Source of the DNA: an uncultured Prevotella sp.
Lineage (GTDB): Bacteria; Bacteroidota; Bacteroidia; Bacteroidales; Bacteroidaceae
Assembly (NCBI GenBank): GCA_900316295.1
Contig: ONCJ01000005.1
Span: 8,962 to 72,961, forward strand
Length of the DNA stretch: 64,000 bases
Direction: 5' to 3'
A model generated the notes under the pieces. It worked only from the letters and a program-made list of their open reading frames with translations. It did no database searches and was not told where the DNA came from. Positions 7,433 through 14,623 of the stretch are shown here, one piece after another (the stretch's first letter is position 1; every line of letters begins with the position of its first letter). Position numbers and translations under genes: made by a program.

Positions 7433-7506
7433 TCTTTTTTATCCTTTCTTTCAGTTTTGAGCTACAAAGATAGTGTTTTTTTCTTATTTTATGTATATTT
7501 TTTTTG

Positions 7507-7586
7507 TAACTTTAGATAAGTTACTCCATCTCGGCATAAAAATAAACACGTTTATTTTGTTCTGCTCTCGATTTTCTATAACTTTG
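7507..7586 (-). repeat. CGAG-hairpin-CGAG interspersed element, copy A
   Basis: Minus strand reads AAGTTAT..CGAG-AGCAGAACAAAATAAAC-GT-GTTTATTTTTATGC-CGAG-ATGGAGTAACTT. TAACTTT occurs at both 7507 and 7579. Same architecture as 28469-28639 and 29574-29666. Confidence 0.75.
7579..7586 (+). promoter_or_regulatory. Bacteroidota -7 promoter box (TAACTTTG) for the 7595-13755 operon
   Basis: Matches the TAnnTTTG consensus and ends 8 nt before the ATG at 7595. Confidence 0.65.
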
Positions 7587-7594
7587 CAAACAAA

Positions 7595-8656
7595 ATGAAA
7601 ATACAACGATACTTTTATATAGTATGTGCCTTTCTGTGTTTAGTAGGTTGCACTGGGGTAGCGAATGACTCACATGAAGATGGCGAGTCGCGTCGTGGTG
7701 ATACGCTACGCACCAAATCGTCACAAGCAGCCGTAGATAAAGGAAATCAACCGGCTGTTGATGACATGTCCGAAAAGGACGTTATGGTGTTTACTCCCCA
7801 GTGGATGGCGCAAGCACAGTTTGCAGGCTACTATGTAGCCGAGGCAAAGGGATTCTATCGAGAAGCGGGCGTGAATGTTCGTATCGAGCATCCGTCGCCT
7901 ACGTCTCCAGCTATCAGTCGTTTGCGCAACGGTCAATGCCAAGCAACGACGATGCAACTATGCCAAGCTCTAGAGGTTGTAGATGGAGGAATTCCTTTGG
8001 TGAACATCTTGCAGACGTCTATGAACAATGCTATGGTCATTGTCTCGGCACGAGACAAGAACCCGTTGACACAGAAGGGTGGACGTGTGGGAATATGGAG
8101 CGTCGATTTCGGTCAGTTAGCTATCTGCATGAGTATAAAAGACCACCTCGACTATCAATGGGTGCGCTTTGCTCAGAATATAAACCTCTTTGTCGCAGGA
8201 GCCCTTGACGCCACACTCGCTATGAGCTATAACGAATATTACCAGTTGGTACAGGCAGGCATCGAGATGAACGACAAGAACGTTTATCGTTTTTGTGATC
8301 ATGGCTATAATGTACAGGAGGATGGAGTATATATGACCCGCGACTATTATGAGAAGCATAGTGAGTATGCCAAGAGATTTGCACAGGCAAGTAGAAAAGG
8401 GTGGGAGTGGACTGCCAGTCATCCCGACGAAGCACTCGATATTGTGATGGAATATGTCAATAGGGATTATGTGGCATCTAATGAAGTCCTGCAGCGCCTG
8501 ATGCTCCAGGAGGTGTTGCGTCTTCAGGTAGATCGTGAGTCTAAGAAGCGCGAATTCAGGTTGCGCCCCGACATGGTGCGACTTGCAAGTCAGCTTATGG
8601 TTGAATACCAGATGCTGAGTCGTGAGATTAAGTATGAGGAACTGATAGATAATTGA
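7595..8656 (+). CDS. NMT1/THI5-like solute-binding lipoprotein (no ABC permease or ATPase nearby)
   Basis: Lipobox-like LVGC; PQWMAQAQFAGYYVAEAKGFYREAG and FAQASRKGWEW are typical of NMT1/SsuA-type binding proteins. Confidence 0.82.
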   Translation: MKIQRYFYIVCAFLCLVGCTGVANDSHEDGESRRGDTLRTKSSQAAVDKGNQPAVDDMSEKDVMVFTPQWMAQAQFAGYYVAEAKGFYREAGVNVRIEHPSPTSPAISRLRNGQCQATTMQLCQALEVVDGGIPLVNILQTSMNNAMVIVSARDKNPLTQKGGRVGIWSVDFGQLAICMSIKDHLDYQWVRFAQNINLFVAGALDATLAMSYNEYYQLVQAGIEMNDKNVYRFCDHGYNVQEDGVYMTRDYYEKHSEYAKRFAQASRKGWEWTASHPDEALDIVMEYVNRDYVASNEVLQRLMLQEVLRLQVDRESKKREFRLRPDMVRLASQLMVEYQMLSREIKYEELIDN

Positions 8657-8675
8657 CAATTGATAATTGACAGCT

Positions 8676-11057
8676 ATGAAAGATATCATACAATTTATCC
8701 GTCGTAAACTCTCTGTGAGAGTCAGCCTGTGGGTGGTGTTCTTCGCTGCTATTATCTTCAACATAGCTCTCGGCTTTTTGTTCTATCAGGCTCGTGATGC
8801 CGTGCGTCAAGAGTCAATCAGCAGGGCTACTCAGATATTGGATAAGACCTCTCTGCATGTAGAGAGTATTCTCAATCGTGTAGAGGTGGCTACCAATATG
8901 ACTGCATGGCTCGTACAGCGTCATCCCGAGAATGCCGACTCCATGTTTGTCTACAGCCGTGGCGTGTTGCTCAATAATCCCGACTTCTACAACTGTTCCA
9001 TAGCCTTCGAGCCATATTATTTCAAGGATAAGGGACGCTATTTCTCTGCCTATACCAGACATGATGGCGACAGCATCCGTACTATACAGGGTGGTAACGA
9101 CAACTATCAGTATTTTTTTATGGACTGGTATCTGATGCCATCGCTGCTCAATAAGCCGTGTTGGACCGAGCCATACATGGATTACGATGTAACCACTAAT
9201 TCGAGCGAGATGGTCAGCAGCTACTGCCAGACTCTCAAGAACAAGGAGGGTAGAGTGATAGGAGTTGTCAATACCAGTCTCTCACTGAACTGGTTCTCAC
9301 AAACGATTTCAAAAATAAAGCCATATCCCAACTCTTACAGTATCATGATAGGTCGTGGTGGTACTTATTTTGTCCATCCAGACTCATCTAAAGTCACCCG
9401 TCAGACCATCTTCACTCAGACAATAGAGCAGCCCGATACGGCACTCGTGGCATTGGGACATGCCATGCAGCGTGGTGAAGAGGGCATGAAGCAAATGACT
9501 ATTGATGGCAAGAACTGCTATGTATTCTATAAACCCCTTGGCAAGACAGGATGCTCAATGGCGATAGTTTGTCCTGAAAAGGATATCTTCGGTGGCTTCG
9601 ACAGACTTCGCAATAGCGTCAGGGCCATCGTCTTGGTGGGTCTGTTGATGATGCTCTATTTCTTTATTCGTATCATCACACGCGAACTTCAGCCTCTTCG
9701 TAGATTGGCACAGGAAGCTGAAACGATAGCTTCGGGCCAGTTTGATGCCCAGTTACCTGAATCAAAGCGTATTGATGAGATAGGTCAGCTGAGCCAGTCG
9801 TTTGGCAATATGCAGCAGTCGCTTGTGAAATACATCGAAGAACTCAAAGACACCACAGCCCAGAAGACGCTGATAGAGAGAGATATCCGTATCGCCAGTG
9901 GCATACAGATGGGTATGTTGCCTAAGACATTCCCCACAAAGGAAGATAGTGACGACGTACAACTCTACGCCTCACTGACCCCAGCCAAGGAGGTAGGTGG
10001 CGACCTGTTCGACTTCTATTTCCGTGATGAGAAGCTCTTCTTCTGTATCGGAGATGTGTCGGGCAAGGGTGTGCCAGCCTCACTATTCATGGCAGTCACA
10101 CGTTCTACCTTCCGTACTGTATCTGCCCATGAGTCGTTGCCCGATCGTATTGTGACTACGATGAACAAGACCATCGCCGACATGAACAAGACCCACATGT
10201 TTGTCACGCTCTTTGTTGGTGTGCTTGATTTGCCCACGGGTCGTCTGCGCTACTGCAATGCGGGCCACGATGCTCCGTTGTTGGTAGGTGCTGGTGTCGG
10301 CGAGATGCCGTGCGATGCTAATATTCCCGTGGGTTTCATGCCATCCTGGAAATATTCGTTGCAAGAGATTCATATCTTTACTGGTACTACTATTTTCCTG
10401 TTTACCGATGGTCTTACCGAGGCCCAAGACTCACAGACCAACCAGTTCCAGATGGAGCGCGTCATCGATGTGGCACACCACGCCCTCTCTTTGCAACAGC
10501 AGGAACCTCGCCAGTTTATTGACATGATGACAGAAAACGTCCGTCAGTTTGTGGGTGATGCCGAACAGAGCGACGACCTCACGATGATGGCAATACAATA
10601 CATCCGCCAGCAGAGCGACATCCGAATGCGTAAGAGCATAGTGCTGACTAATGACATCAAGGAGGTGACTAAGCTGATAGCTTTTGTTGAAGATGTCTGT
10701 GAGACAGTCCAAATGGATGAGGCTACAACTATGCAGATGAAGATTGCTATCGAGGAGGCTGTGGTCAATGTTATCAACTATGCCTATCCCGTCGGTATGC
10801 GTGGTGATGTGACCATTGAGGCTGCCTCCAATGACGTACGTCTGAAGTTTACCATCATTGATAGCGGCAAGCCCTTCGACCCAACAGTCCATGCAACCGT
10901 CGATACAAAGCTGTCAGCCAAGGACCGCCGTATCGGAGGCTTGGGCATTCACATCGTACGCCAGATGATGGACTCGATGAACTACGAGCGTGTTGGCAAA
11001 CTCAACGTGCTCACTCTTAGGAAGAAAATAAATAACAAAAATACAAACAATCAGTAA
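8676..11057 (+). CDS. Membrane sensor: TM-Cache-TM-HAMP-SpoIIE/PP2C phosphatase-HATPase (RsbW-like kinase) fusion
   Basis: Cache-like DWY...WTEPY. HAMP-like PLRRLAQEAETIASG...DEIGQL. PP2C motifs VGGDLFD, GDVSGKG, NAGH, FTDGLTEA, DDLT. RsbW-like EEAVVNVINYAY, DSGKPFDP, GGLGIHIV. Confidence 0.92.
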   Translation: MKDIIQFIRRKLSVRVSLWVVFFAAIIFNIALGFLFYQARDAVRQESISRATQILDKTSLHVESILNRVEVATNMTAWLVQRHPENADSMFVYSRGVLLNNPDFYNCSIAFEPYYFKDKGRYFSAYTRHDGDSIRTIQGGNDNYQYFFMDWYLMPSLLNKPCWTEPYMDYDVTTNSSEMVSSYCQTLKNKEGRVIGVVNTSLSLNWFSQTISKIKPYPNSYSIMIGRGGTYFVHPDSSKVTRQTIFTQTIEQPDTALVALGHAMQRGEEGMKQMTIDGKNCYVFYKPLGKTGCSMAIVCPEKDIFGGFDRLRNSVRAIVLVGLLMMLYFFIRIITRELQPLRRLAQEAETIASGQFDAQLPESKRIDEIGQLSQSFGNMQQSLVKYIEELKDTTAQKTLIERDIRIASGIQMGMLPKTFPTKEDSDDVQLYASLTPAKEVGGDLFDFYFRDEKLFFCIGDVSGKGVPASLFMAVTRSTFRTVSAHESLPDRIVTTMNKTIADMNKTHMFVTLFVGVLDLPTGRLRYCNAGHDAPLLVGAGVGEMPCDANIPVGFMPSWKYSLQEIHIFTGTTIFLFTDGLTEAQDSQTNQFQMERVIDVAHHALSLQQQEPRQFIDMMTENVRQFVGDAEQSDDLTMMAIQYIRQQSDIRMRKSIVLTNDIKEVTKLIAFVEDVCETVQMDEATTMQMKIAIEEAVVNVINYAYPVGMRGDVTIEAASNDVRLKFTIIDSGKPFDPTVHATVDTKLSAKDRRIGGLGIHIVRQMMDSMNYERVGKLNVLTLRKKINNKNTNNQ

Positions 11058-11069
11058 TCTATAATCAAA

Positions 11070-11372
11070 ATGAAAACAACAATCCAAGAACAAAACGGCA
11101 ATATGGTTGCCATTCTTGAGGGACGTCTCGACACCGTCGCCGCACCAGAGACTGAAAAGGCTATGAATGTACTCAATGACGTTGAAGACAAGGATATCAT
11201 CATCGACTGCACCGATCTTGAGTATATATCTTCGGCTGGGTTGCGTATCTTCCTTGGCATCCTGCAGAATGCCCAGGAGCGTGGAGGACATGTATATATC
11301 AGAAATATCAACGACCAGGTTCGCACCATCTTCACCATTACGGGTTTCAGTAATATCTTCGAGTTTAAGTAA
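11070..11372 (+). CDS. STAS-domain anti-sigma-factor antagonist (RsbV/SpoIIAA-like)
   Basis: GRLDT, IIDCTDLEYISSAGLR containing the phosphorylatable Ser, and IFTITGF. Confidence 0.93.
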   Translation: MKTTIQEQNGNMVAILEGRLDTVAAPETEKAMNVLNDVEDKDIIIDCTDLEYISSAGLRIFLGILQNAQERGGHVYIRNINDQVRTIFTITGFSNIFEFK

Positions 11373-11390
11373 AAGGCAAACATCAGTCTG

Positions 11391-12476
11391 ATGAGCAACA
11401 TAATACTTGACCCACATGGCGAGGCTCTGATGAAGCAATTCCGTGAGCTGCGCCCTACGCTCGAGGCCATCTCTGATAAGGCCTACGACATACTGGCTCG
11501 AGCCCTGAAAGATCAGGAAATCTACGTCACAGCCATCGAACACCGCATAAAGACAGAGAAGTCTCTGGCAGGCAAACTCGAACTGAAGGGTGTCAAATAC
11601 AAGACCATCGATGACATTACCGACCTTGTCGGTCTGCGAGTCATCACATTCTATACCGACGAGGTAGATAAGGTGGCAGCCATTGTCAAGCGTATCTTCG
11701 ACATCGACTGGCATGAGAGTGTTGACAAGCGCAAGCTACATGAGCTCGATGCCTTCGGCTATAACTCCCTGCATTTCGTCTGTAGGCTGAAGCCGCAAGA
11801 TGCTATTGACCCAGATAGGAATCCGAGGTTCGAGCTACAGATGCGCACCGCCCTGCAGCATGTGTGGTCTACCATCGAGCACGACACAGGCTATAAGGGC
11901 GACGTGAAGATACCACGAGAGTATAAGAGGCAGTTCAGCCGTCTGGCAGGAATGATGGAGCTTATCGACGACGAGTTCAGCCGTCTGCGTACAGTCCTCA
12001 CCGATTATCGTCGAAACACGTTGTCACTTGTCAAGAGTGGCAAACTCAATGAAGTGCCACTCTCTCGTGAGAACTTCCGTAACTACCTCGACCTTCATCC
12101 CTTCGATCGCCTCAACCTTCGTATTGCCGCCGTCAATCAGGCAGAGATCTATCCCGTATCGGTGATGTCCTATCTGCCCGTACTCGAATCCTTCGGACTG
12201 GAGACCCTTGGCGACGTCGAGCACTTCATCGACGACAACGGCGAGGATGCCTATCAGCTTGCCGTCTCTCAGCTTGCCATCACCGATCTCGACCTCCTCT
12301 CGTCCAATACTGCCATACAGTATCTATGCCTGGTCTATGTGTTGAAACACGGCGGAGGATGTGACGGTATCAAGTCGTTCTTCGACGTCATCAATGGCGA
12401 GTCTTCCACTAACGACATGTTGGCAGAGATGATGATGGAGCAAGCCTATACCTTGCCATTCATGCATAAGAAATAA
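11391..12476 (+). CDS. Small alarmone synthetase (RelA/SpoT SYNTH domain) with an extra C-terminal domain
   Basis: RIKTEKSLAGK, DLVGLRV, GYNSLH and ELQMRTALQHVWSTIEH match Syn1-4. No HD, TGS or ACT motifs seen. Confidence 0.9.
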   Translation: MSNIILDPHGEALMKQFRELRPTLEAISDKAYDILARALKDQEIYVTAIEHRIKTEKSLAGKLELKGVKYKTIDDITDLVGLRVITFYTDEVDKVAAIVKRIFDIDWHESVDKRKLHELDAFGYNSLHFVCRLKPQDAIDPDRNPRFELQMRTALQHVWSTIEHDTGYKGDVKIPREYKRQFSRLAGMMELIDDEFSRLRTVLTDYRRNTLSLVKSGKLNEVPLSRENFRNYLDLHPFDRLNLRIAAVNQAEIYPVSVMSYLPVLESFGLETLGDVEHFIDDNGEDAYQLAVSQLAITDLDLLSSNTAIQYLCLVYVLKHGGGCDGIKSFFDVINGESSTNDMLAEMMMEQAYTLPFMHKK

Positions 12477-12509
12477 TATTAGTGAAACACAAATCAACAT
12501 TATAGGAAA

Positions 12510-13145
12510 ATGAACAAAAACGAGAAATTCGTCATCACCATCAACCGCGAAGTCGGTTCTGGTGGACGTACCGTGGGACGCAAATTGTCAGAGAGGTTAA
12601 ATGTAAAATATTTTGATAAGGCTATCGTCGACGGACTTACTGAGAAGTTCGGACTCTCCATAGAGCGTATAGAGAAGATAAAGTCACAGAAAAAGTCGTG
12701 GTGGAATGACTTCAATAACTACTACCAGACGCTCATCAATAGCGCCTCCTTGCCTATGGAGGCAGAGGTGAAGCTCGACAATGCCACTATGTTTGAGACC
12801 GAGAAGCGTATCCTCAGCGAACTGGCAGAACAGTCATCATGCGTCATCGCTGGTCGTACGGGCTTCATGATCTTCCGTGAGTGGCCCAACCACCTGAACA
12901 TCTTCATTCAGGCATCAATGGAGCATCGCATCCAGCGTGTCATGCGCCGCCAGAACGTCGGGGAGACTGAGGCACGTGATATCATAGCAAAGATGGACTC
13001 CAGCCGTGAGACCTACATCCAGAAGTACGAGGATACATCACGCTACGACACACGCAACTACCAGCTTGTCATCTCTATGGACGATCTGAGCGAAGACGAT
13101 GCTGTGGAGGTTATCATGGAATACATCAATCGTACCAGCAAGTAA
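12510..13145 (+). CDS. Cytidylate kinase-like family protein
   Basis: FVITINREVGSGGRTVGRKLSERL, CVIAGR, IFIQASMEHRIQR, YQLVI. Confidence 0.88.
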   Translation: MNKNEKFVITINREVGSGGRTVGRKLSERLNVKYFDKAIVDGLTEKFGLSIERIEKIKSQKKSWWNDFNNYYQTLINSASLPMEAEVKLDNATMFETEKRILSELAEQSSCVIAGRTGFMIFREWPNHLNIFIQASMEHRIQRVMRRQNVGETEARDIIAKMDSSRETYIQKYEDTSRYDTRNYQLVISMDDLSEDDAVEVIMEYINRTSK

Positions 13146-13170
13146 AGGGAATTTGCTTCATATAACAAAG

Positions 13171-13755
13171 ATGAAAAACAAGTCGTTAGACACCAAGCTG
13201 CTCGATCGTGCCATAGAGTTTGCCGTCCATGCCCACGCAGGCATCGAGCGTCGTGGCAAAGGATTTCCCTATATCGTTCATCCCATGGAAGCCGTAGAGA
13301 TAGTAGCCACCATGACCTCCGATCAGGAGCTGCTGGCGGCTGCCGTACTCCACGACGTCGTCGAGGATACCGACATCACCATTGATCAGATACGCAGAGA
13401 GTTTGGCGAACGCATAGCCTCTATCGTAGCTGTGGAGAGCGACAACTGCGACACCACCGTCAGTCCCTCCACCACATGGCACGACAAGAAGCAGGCAGCC
13501 ATCACTCGCCTGTCACGTGCTCCCTACGACGCAAAGATGGTAGCCCTGGGCGACAAGCTCTCCAATATGCGAGCCATAGCCCGCGACTATGCCGTACAGG
13601 GCGATGCCCTCTGGAGCCTCTTCCGTACCAATGACCCCCATGAGCATGCGTGGCACTATCAGGGACTAGCCCGTGCCCTGAGCGACCTTCATGACACACC
13701 TGCCTATCAGGAGTTTAGCCATCTCGTCGATCAGGTCTTTCATTCTAAGGAATAG
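13171..13755 (+). CDS. HD-domain small alarmone hydrolase (Mesh1-like)
   Basis: AHAGIERRG..PYIVHP, AAVLHDVVEDT (HDxxED), DKLSNMR. Confidence 0.88.
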   Translation: MKNKSLDTKLLDRAIEFAVHAHAGIERRGKGFPYIVHPMEAVEIVATMTSDQELLAAAVLHDVVEDTDITIDQIRREFGERIASIVAVESDNCDTTVSPSTTWHDKKQAAITRLSRAPYDAKMVALGDKLSNMRAIARDYAVQGDALWSLFRTNDPHEHAWHYQGLARALSDLHDTPAYQEFSHLVDQVFHSKE

Positions 13756-13784
13756 ATCGACAAAGTCATGATATTGATGTCTTA

Positions 13785-13907
13785 CAATTCGGCACATATT
13801 AGCTCGCAATATGTGCCGAATTGATAGGCAAAACGATAGGTATTGAGTCGCAATATGTGCCGTTTTTATAAGGAAAATGTGTCTTATTCAGTGCAGGATA
13901 TGTGCCG
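13785..13907. repeat. 16-bp perfect inverted repeat plus ATATGTGCCG direct repeats
   Basis: CAATTCGGCACATATT (13785-13800) pairs with AATATGTGCCGAATTG (13808-13823). TCGCAATATGTGCCG at 13804 and 13848; ATATGTGCCG at 13898. Confidence 0.8.
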
Positions 13908-13981
13908 CCTACCAGTGTAGGGGAAAGGTAGTGATACCATAAGGTGTCTACATTCGGACAAATATACAATATCTATATACG

Positions 13982-14023
13982 AAAAATAGCAGCTACATTC
14001 GAGATTGTAGCTGCTATTTTTTT
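13982..14023. terminator. Bidirectional intrinsic terminator
   Basis: AAAAATAGCAGCTACA-loop-TGTAGCTGCTATTTTT between convergent genes. Confidence 0.85.
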
Positions 14024-14040: not shown

Positions 14041-14559
14041 TTAGAAGGCGAGGACTGCTCTCACCCTGCTACTTCCAAAGCCATATTGCTTGAACTGAGG
14101 ACCAATCTCTATGACTATCTGGTCTTTGTCGAAGTACATGGCATAGGCCTGTTCGTTGCTCGACTCGGATGATGTCCAGTAGTAACGATAGTCGCCTGTG
14201 GGGATGTCGAGTGGTGAATAGTTGCCACTACCGCTAAGACTAAGATACTCATTGATACGGCTGATACAGTTGTTGATGTCGTCAGATTTGTTCCAATAGC
14301 CTTCGGTAGCGCTGATGGAAAGGGTACGGAGCTTAGTCCAGTTCTGACGGTCGGCAGAATAGTATACTTCCACAAAAGAGATGGTGCCAAAGATGCGAGC
14401 GGCATCAAAACCAAGAGTCTCCCCTCTGCTACTTCGAGCAGTGGAGAGATGAGTTTTGTTGCATCGGTGTTGTTGTTTATTGCGTAATATTTGTTGTCTC
14501 CAAGGACAAGATTGTTAGACTGTTACCATCCATTCTCAGCAATCATGTTGACAGGCATG
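14041..14559 (-). pseudogene. Degraded surface-protein remnant ending in a DUF1566/CLec-like C-terminus
   Basis: Manual translation: MPVNMIAENGW*QSNN...KLISPLLEVAEG, then a frameshift to ETLGFDAA...VEVYYSADRQNW...YWTSSES..AY.MYF...RVRAVLAF*. Confidence 0.6.
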
Positions 14560-14623
14560 GTGTTGTCCGAATAAGTTAGCTCGTGGGAATAAGTCAGTTA
14601 TATATAGCCAAAGCGGTTCCGCA

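Follow-up and report, generated by a model that had tools for sequence, protein, structure and literature searches.

The window is a 64,000-nucleotide stretch of DNA from a rumen bacterium, an uncultured Prevotella sp. (contig ONCJ01000005.1). Its positions 7595 to 13755 hold a cluster of six genes in which a membrane sensor and a small STAS switch protein stand next to a small alarmone synthetase (SAS) and a small alarmone hydrolase (SAH). This cluster is our subject. All six open reading frames (ORFs) lie on the + strand, and the ORF listing of the window reproduced both the coordinates and the intergenic gaps (19, 12, 18, 33, and 25 bp) of a previous reading that used the DNA letters only (the sequence-only reading). 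The Pfam domains follow in the order NMT1; dCache_1/PDC-HAMP-SpoIIE-HATPase_c_2; STAS; RelA_SpoT; Cytidylate_kin2; HD_4. The cluster encodes neither a sigma factor nor a permease or ATPase of an ATP-binding cassette (ABC) transporter, as that reading had said. The genes and their parts are as follows.

7595-8656, + strand: NMT1/THI5-like solute-binding protein, 353 amino acids, with a lipoprotein signal in this copy; probable input partner of the Cache sensor
8676-11057, + strand: sensor with the architecture transmembrane (TM) helix-dCache_1-TM-HAMP-PP2C(SpoIIE)-HATPase_c_2, 793 amino acids; phosphatase and RsbW-type kinase in one chain
11070-11372, + strand: STAS switch of the anti-anti-sigma type, 100 amino acids; codon of S55 at 11232-11234
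11391-12002, + strand: catalytic part of the SAS, residues 1-204, RelP/RelQ-like; R52, K54, S58, K62, D78, G81, R83, Y124, H128, E148, and Q150 present and conserved
12003-12476, + strand: helical C-terminal domain (SAS residues 205-361) that matches no Pfam family; predicted STAS docking site TDLD[IL]LS at 12282-12302
12510-13145, + strand: P-loop protein of the Cytidylate_kin2 family, 211 amino acids; GSGGRT replaces the Walker A lysine; variable member of the cluster
13171-13755, + strand: SAH of the RelH type, 194 amino acids; motifs HD1-HD6 complete

The second and third genes encode the parts of a partner switch. The sensor has two TM helices. Its PP2C domain matches SpoIIE (E 3e-46) and carries GGDLFD, GDVSGKG, FTDG, and DDLT, while its kinase domain matches HATPase_c_2 (E 1e-23) with EEAVVN, DSG, and GGLG as the N, G1, and G2 boxes. 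The PP2C and N/G1/G2 motifs are kept in 41-42 of the 45 full-length homologues of the sensor. The STAS protein scores above the cut-off of TIGR00377, and its S55, invariant in 34 sequences, falls in the alignment on the serine that is phosphorylated in RsbV and SpoIIAA. The RsbU/RsbW/RsbV-type module proposed before is there in full, with PP2C, kinase boxes, and phosphoacceptor serine all intact. The top NCBIfam match of the sensor is SiaA, at 93 bits versus a cut-off of 700, so the protein is not a SiaA equivalog. A second pair, a Cache-PP2C-HATPase sensor with a STAS protein and then an AraC-type regulator, was seen in the same genome at L032:8468-11523 (G000:C16). Its STAS is 52% identical to that of the operon and has the same serine and TGF motif, and the pair could cross-talk with the SAS.

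The whole SAS gene spans 11391-12476, and the RelA_SpoT match covers residues 51-171 of its product. The protein has a SYNTH fold and is without HD, TGS, or ACT domains; its catalytic residues are all present, and the earlier call of intact Syn1-4 motifs was correct. Structural comparison with RelP and RelQ gave a Z of about 19 (rmsd 2.1-2.6, about 180 residues aligned), versus 11.7 for CapRel, 11.3 for Tas1, and 7.3 for FaRel. The SAS falls below the RelQ (YjbM) equivalog (66.6 bits versus a cut-off of 320) and has an extra C-terminal domain. Because of the RelP/RelQ-like fold and motifs, the product is most likely to be (p)ppGpp. A weak PADLOC match to PDC-S33 covers the catalytic part only. 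The genome also encodes two long RelA/SpoT homologue (RSH) genes.

The C-terminal domain of about 157 amino acids had been overlooked in the sequence-only reading. It is mostly helical, confidently modeled (pLDDT 94), and common to a wide family of SAS proteins of 350-380 amino acids. Foldseek returned nothing for it at E 0.001 (best VIA Z 4.2), and neither Pfam nor PDB profiles matched it, which does not prove a new fold. In the ESM Atlas the fold matched only its own family and an unnamed 206-amino-acid cluster with 71 members (TM 0.82). The members of this cluster are shorter proteins that carry the C-terminal fold, have no common Pfam family, and are mostly from Bacillota.

The last gene had been called a Mesh1-like HD hydrolase. 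An SAH with a full catalytic set it is: R27, H37, H61, D62, E65, D66, D128, K129, and N132 are invariant in 17 sequences. Its nearer relatives, however, are RelH of Leptospira and Corynebacterium and Lmo0812 (E 1e-28 to 1e-29) and not Mesh1 (1e-19 to 1e-20). The cytidylate-kinase-like (CMK-like) label of the fifth gene holds as a match to Cytidylate_kin2, an uncharacterized family; the protein lacks the Walker A lysine and is not a cmk equivalog (25.7 bits versus a cut-off of 135.55). At L087:9344-11068, the hydrolase and the SAS share one 575-codon open frame. This HD-SAS frame, in genome G101, is likely to reflect a stop loss in one genome, and we left it out of the fusion evidence.

We then read the gene neighborhoods of the SAS in 70 distinct loci, each flanked by 5 kb or more on both sides; these loci were picked by similarity and are not independent. 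STAS lay within 5 kb of the SAS in 39 of the 70 loci and was adjacent in 36. Other neighbors within 5 kb were the hydrolase (44 loci, directly adjacent to the SAS in 23), the sensor (36), the binding protein (29), and the CMK-like gene (12). Gene orders in the cluster are freely shuffled. Of 93 distinct loci, 8 have all six genes, arranged differently, and a fixed six-gene operon was therefore rejected; the order CMK-like then HD behind the core recurs only in a 99% identical SAS locus. Thus the six-gene synteny that the sequence-only reading had put forward for checking does not recur, with a variable CMK-like gene, a hydrolase that moves or is missing, and a binding protein in a part of the loci, but the STAS-SAS core does. 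The stable core of the cluster is STAS plus SAS. The linkage holds in other Bacteroidales families. At 31-40% SAS identity, contigs of clostridial type read SAS-HD-STAS-(5TM-LYT/PP2C/HATPase) and a contig of Treponema type reads SAS-STAS-SpoIIE-HATPase, the taxa being taken from the names of cluster members of the neighboring genes. The sensor input varies while the STAS-SAS pair persists. The closest relatives are rumen Prevotellaceae and Bacteroidaceae. A cultured relative, Prevotella sp. tc2-28, also carries the SAS (L062).

Co-occurrence was scored in 151 genomes, an even sample of the family. STAS was present in 16 of 16 genomes with the SAS versus 24 of the 135 others, 40 STAS genomes in total, and it was retained also in genomes where it does not adjoin the SAS. 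The nesting of SAS within STAS genomes gave a genus-stratified P of 3e-5, a value that is overstated because of kinship and shared habitat. The SAS was found in 13 of 13 hydrolase genomes, and 3 of the 16 SAS genomes were without the hydrolase.

Gene fusions join the same partners. Three sequences, 78% alike and from two sources in one lineage, encode a 521-amino-acid HATPase_c_2-SAS fusion, and SAS-APH, APH-HD, APH-STAS, and SAS-HD fusions link the gene pool. A STAS-SAS fusion was not seen among 3 longer homologues, which made for a weak search. The genes that come and go in the cluster are a SLC13/TrkA-C permease, an APH-like kinase, a protein of the tyrosine-phosphatase family, a fused amino-acid ABC transporter, and a cupin. 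The APH-like kinase is fused to STAS, hydrolase, or SAS in relatives (L061:12585-13808; L233:7198-8397; L114:7637-9046; L242:3029-4975). It is often paired with a Y_phosphatase3 gene, which makes a third opposing enzyme pair.

A predicted complex of SAS and STAS scored 0.78 (0.76-0.81), and the best of three controls scored 0.00. The runs agreed in at least 98% of their contacts, with a partner pLDDT of at least 87. Of 80 solved complexes, 58 attain the mark used for the score, as do 2 of 110 mismatched pairs; these counts are only roughly valid because our own alignments were used. Contacts were predicted between SAS residues 291-310, centered on TDLD[IL]LS, and STAS residues 54-62 and 82-96, on the face that bears S55. 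The invariant residues at this predicted interface are D301 of the SAS and S55, R59, G92, and F93 of STAS. Gut clades retain the docking motif, which more distant SAS proteins have lost. In a small and related set of SAS loci below 45% identity with at least 3 kb of flanks, STAS was nearby in all 4 loci with the motif and in none of the 4 that lack it; another two clostridial loci follow this pattern. The model lends support to a putative docking in which STAS would meet the SAS C-terminal domain with its phosphoserine face.

On the input side, the sequence-only reading had described an NMT1-type binding lipoprotein. Domain and signal are both present in the window copy, but only 3 of 43 sequences match a lipobox: the lipid anchor is private to the window copy, and most homologues have an ordinary signal peptide. 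The nearest solved relative is ThiY (3IX1, E 1.7e-10), which gives at most a lead toward a pyrimidine-like ligand. In the loci read, the binding protein adjoins or precedes the Cache sensor and not a permease or ATPase as in a ThiY-type ABC transporter, and STAS was present in 12 of the 12 sampled genomes that carry it. This pairing with Cache sensors agrees with the earlier assignment to the sensor instead of a transporter, and it supports a function as sensor accessory. Elsewhere, at L227:5371-9765 and L229:8886-13565, the binding-protein family precedes tandem Cache-HAMP histidine kinases, the first of them without an ATPase domain in L227. Because the binding protein is found before such kinases as well, the input module is swapped between outputs. 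In dCache_1 sensors of amino acids or amines, an Arg starts and an Asp ends the binding motif (PMC10104139). Reading this motif in the sensor gave no match: M stands here at the Arg position, which varies, and the close group has S for the last Asp.

The STAS protein has other companions. In the genome sample it was present in 23 of 24 genomes with the SLC13 subfamily, and this STAS-linked permease, which often lies between sensor and STAS, was found in 15 of the 24 genomes that have STAS and lack the SAS. Since these 24 STAS genomes do without the SAS and 15 of them have the permease, the alarmone is probably not the sole output. To judge from gene content, STAS probably serves further clients, above all the SLC13/TrkA-C permease, and the alarmone branch is probably one output of a branched switch. 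The earlier proposal that the sensor-STAS switch feeds the SAS/SAH pair thus keeps its central coupling, which is backed by synteny, co-occurrence, fusion, and the complex model, and probably loses its exclusivity. Elsewhere in the source genome, at G000:C25:25450-32340, the fused amino-acid ABC transporter, the SLC13/TrkA-C permease, and a 766-amino-acid membrane protein, CPA2 antiporter-like by its N-terminus, stand together.

Taken together, these results suggest a partner switch of the SiaABCD kind with the SAS as an output, a reading that we consider likely. The binding protein and the dCache domain would take up a signal from outside, as their gene pairing suggests. This signal would shift the sensor's phosphatase-kinase balance and, with it, the state of STAS S55, as expected from the biochemistry of the Rsb, SpoIIA, and Sia systems and from the intact motifs. 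Unphosphorylated STAS would bind the C-terminal domain of the SAS through its phosphoserine face, as in the complex model, and phosphorylation, or capture by the kinase, would free it; such a dependence on phosphorylation is suggested because S55 adjoins the acidic D299 and D301. Binding of STAS would alter synthetase activity. We slightly favor activation over inhibition, since SiaC-SiaD and the brake that Tde-SAS has at its C terminus offer analogies for it. The RelH-type hydrolase, by its fold and motifs, would reset (p)ppGpp, and the CMK-like protein would be an optional member of the system. To a more far-reaching version we give an even chance: a two-domain SAS family of gut anaerobes would be switched directly by a STAS that docks on the uncharacterized C-terminal domain, a periplasmic signal would be turned into (p)ppGpp independently of the ribosome, and the STAS hub would also set the transporter and the APH-like kinase.

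Several observations weigh against a STAS-switched SAS. STAS is absent from the surroundings of about 45% of the SAS loci, 14 of the 70 SAS genes stand alone, and the SAS is missing from 24 of the 40 STAS genomes. The SLC13, APH-like kinase, and tyrosine phosphatase genes travel with the same cluster, and with such other pool genes present adjacency alone is weak evidence. The C-terminal domain occurs also in distant SAS proteins without a STAS neighbor; the domain therefore did not originate for STAS docking. As for the complex, conservation of the interface overall does not exceed that of the remaining domain (p 0.54), and none of the three controls was a cousin STAS. Moreover, STAS proteins use the same face in the solved SpoIIAA/RsbV-kinase complexes, so the confidence of the model may partly reflect this likeness. 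Finally, the genome holds 7 sigma-70 region-2 genes elsewhere.

Three other explanations were weighed. The STAS switch might mainly control transporters, SLC13/TrkA-C and similar, with SAS and SAH co-expressed and never in direct contact. The permease counts given above, the frequent position of the permease between sensor and STAS, and the free shuffling of gene orders all fit this account. Against it stand the strict nesting of SAS within STAS genomes, the adjacency of the two genes in three phyla, the kinase-SAS fusion, and the complex model; the permease is on another contig in the source genome, and both outputs could coexist. We regard it as unlikely. A classical switch, in which the kinase domain is the anti-sigma factor for a sigma factor elsewhere and the alarmone genes belong to its regulon, would be in keeping with the RsbU/RsbW/RsbV-type domains, S55, and the sigma-70 genes just mentioned. 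Yet no cognate sigma factor was found in the cluster, and no sigma factor family recurs among the neighbors of 95 loci; the kinase is tethered to the membrane and is fused to the SAS in one lineage, and the complex model points to the SAS. This we hold to be very improbable, the least probable of the three.

The SAS could also be a toxic or defense synthetase that makes (p)ppApp or pyrophosphorylates tRNA. Its restraint would come from the hydrolase, from its own C-terminal domain, or from STAS acting as an antitoxin, and what the switch senses would then be envelope or phage damage. SAS-HD bicistrons are indeed common, the hydrolase genomes all have the SAS, the two-domain SAS recalls fused CapRel, the weak PDC-S33 match points the same way, and the distribution is patchy. 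A fused C-terminal antitoxin is possible. Against this, the fold is far nearer to RelP and RelQ than to CapRel, Tas1, or FaRel, the HD gene is missing in 3 of the 16 SAS genomes, and the loci are flanked by housekeeping genes, not by defense islands or prophages. For an adjacent antitoxin gene the picture is mixed, with HD adjacent in 23, STAS adjacent in 36, and the SAS alone in 14 of the 70 loci. We judge this explanation improbable, slightly less so than the classical sigma switch, and retain the partner switch with an alarmone output.

In Bacillus, RsbU-RsbV-RsbW-sigmaB and SpoIIE-SpoIIAA-SpoIIAB-sigmaF are three-domain partner switches that act on sigma factors. The Prevotella cluster uses the same three domain families and the same aligned phosphoserine position, but it has no sigma factor and its kinase is fused to the membrane phosphatase. 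In SiaABCD of Pseudomonas aeruginosa, a small STAS-like protein is switched between states by a HAMP-PP2C phosphatase and a kinase, and it binds the messenger synthase of the same operon unless it is phosphorylated (PMC7647112, PMC8457831). Both gene sets combine a membrane HAMP-PP2C sensor, a small switch, and a messenger synthase. Unlike Sia, which has a GGDEF diguanylate cyclase and a DUF1987 switch with a Thr, the Prevotella cluster has a RelA/SpoT-type synthetase, a phosphatase and kinase fused in one chain, a true STAS with a Ser, and, in addition, a binding protein and a cognate hydrolase. STAS phosphorylation also controls a cyclic di-GMP (c-di-GMP) enzyme in HptB-HsbR-HsbA-HsbD of P. 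aeruginosa and BgrSTUWV-BgrR of Sinorhizobium meliloti (PMC8457831). These resemble our cluster in its proposed STAS control of a nucleotide-messenger enzyme and differ in their c-di-GMP output and their input domains. The cluster would work like SiaABCD, HsbA-HsbD, and BgrV-BgrR but belongs to none of them, and it is not a SigB/SigF locus.

The enzymes, too, have known relatives. The SAS shares its catalytic fold and Syn1-4 residues with RelP, RelQ, and Tde-SAS (DsRel) of Treponema denticola, a two-domain protein as well, whose C-terminal domain brakes synthesis (PMC10434055). The C-terminal domain here is unlike the Tde-SAS TPR domain, having no Pfam match, and RelP and RelQ have neither such a domain nor a known phospho-switch partner. 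The toxSAS proteins FaRel, FaRel2, PhRel, and CapRel (PMC7229694, PMC11782079) resemble the cluster in having a SAS beside an SAH and in two-domain SAS proteins; they differ in their lower structural similarity, and the cluster appears to have no consistent antitoxin gene and is tied to sensor and STAS. RelH of Corynebacterium glutamicum and Leptospira levettii (PMC9293644) are the nearest solved relatives of the hydrolase, with HD1-HD6 in common. Unlike RelH, the hydrolase was found only in genomes with the SAS subfamily and is fused to the SAS or the APH-like kinase in some relatives. Because partner switches with c-di-GMP outputs are known (Sia, HsbD, BgrR), the logic is not new. The alarmone as partner-switch output would be the new element. 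Our search of a library with few subscription journals found no paper joining a small alarmone synthetase and a STAS domain or describing STAS control of an RSH enzyme; wider queries gave only reviews or unrelated work, to judge from titles and abstracts.

Three further features flank the genes.

7501-7590, + strand: dispersed repeat of about 90 bp with the Bacteroidota -33 (TTTG, 7556)/-7 (TAACTTTG, 7579) pattern, 19-nt spacer; more than 20 blastn matches on other contigs
13778-13830, no strand: strong hairpin 3' of the last gene, -28 kcal/mol
13982-14021, no strand: second hairpin with a T-tail, terminator-like, -24 kcal/mol; similar hairpins on three further contigs

The case for a promoter is better than the earlier box suggested, with TTTG 19 nt upstream of TAACTTTG. 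This pattern has a density of 0.13 per kb in the genome, and the window's first 16 kb contain one instance; a sigma-70 promoter scan was set aside as unsuited to Bacteroidota. The repeat has an internal palindrome and ends in a TAnnTTTG(CA)-like box, some of its genome copies are in tandem, and it may represent a small mobile element that brings promoters with it. The hairpins described behind the operon were found, two of them. The first is formed by the motif ATATGTGCCG, which is present at 13778-13910 in three copies plus one inverted. No cassette or integron-like repeats were found between the six genes. From their translations, we take the divergent flanking gene to be folC and the convergent ones dnaJ-grpE. 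The space between the hydrolase and dnaJ holds a broken gene remnant on the minus strand (14041-14590): a 110-amino-acid frame that ends in RVRAVLAF, whose upstream part lies in a different frame, and a stop.

Known inputs of alarmone synthetases are stalled ribosomes, transcription, allosteric nucleotides, partner proteins in the cytoplasm, and phage proteins. If our reading is true, the stringent response would also receive an outside input, from a membrane sensor that sets SAS activity by way of a serine phospho-switch, and the control of messengers by partner switches would extend from c-di-GMP to alarmones. A widespread, unannotated SAS domain would gain a job. The finding also bears on why bacteria with two long RSH enzymes retain an extra SAS/SAH pair.

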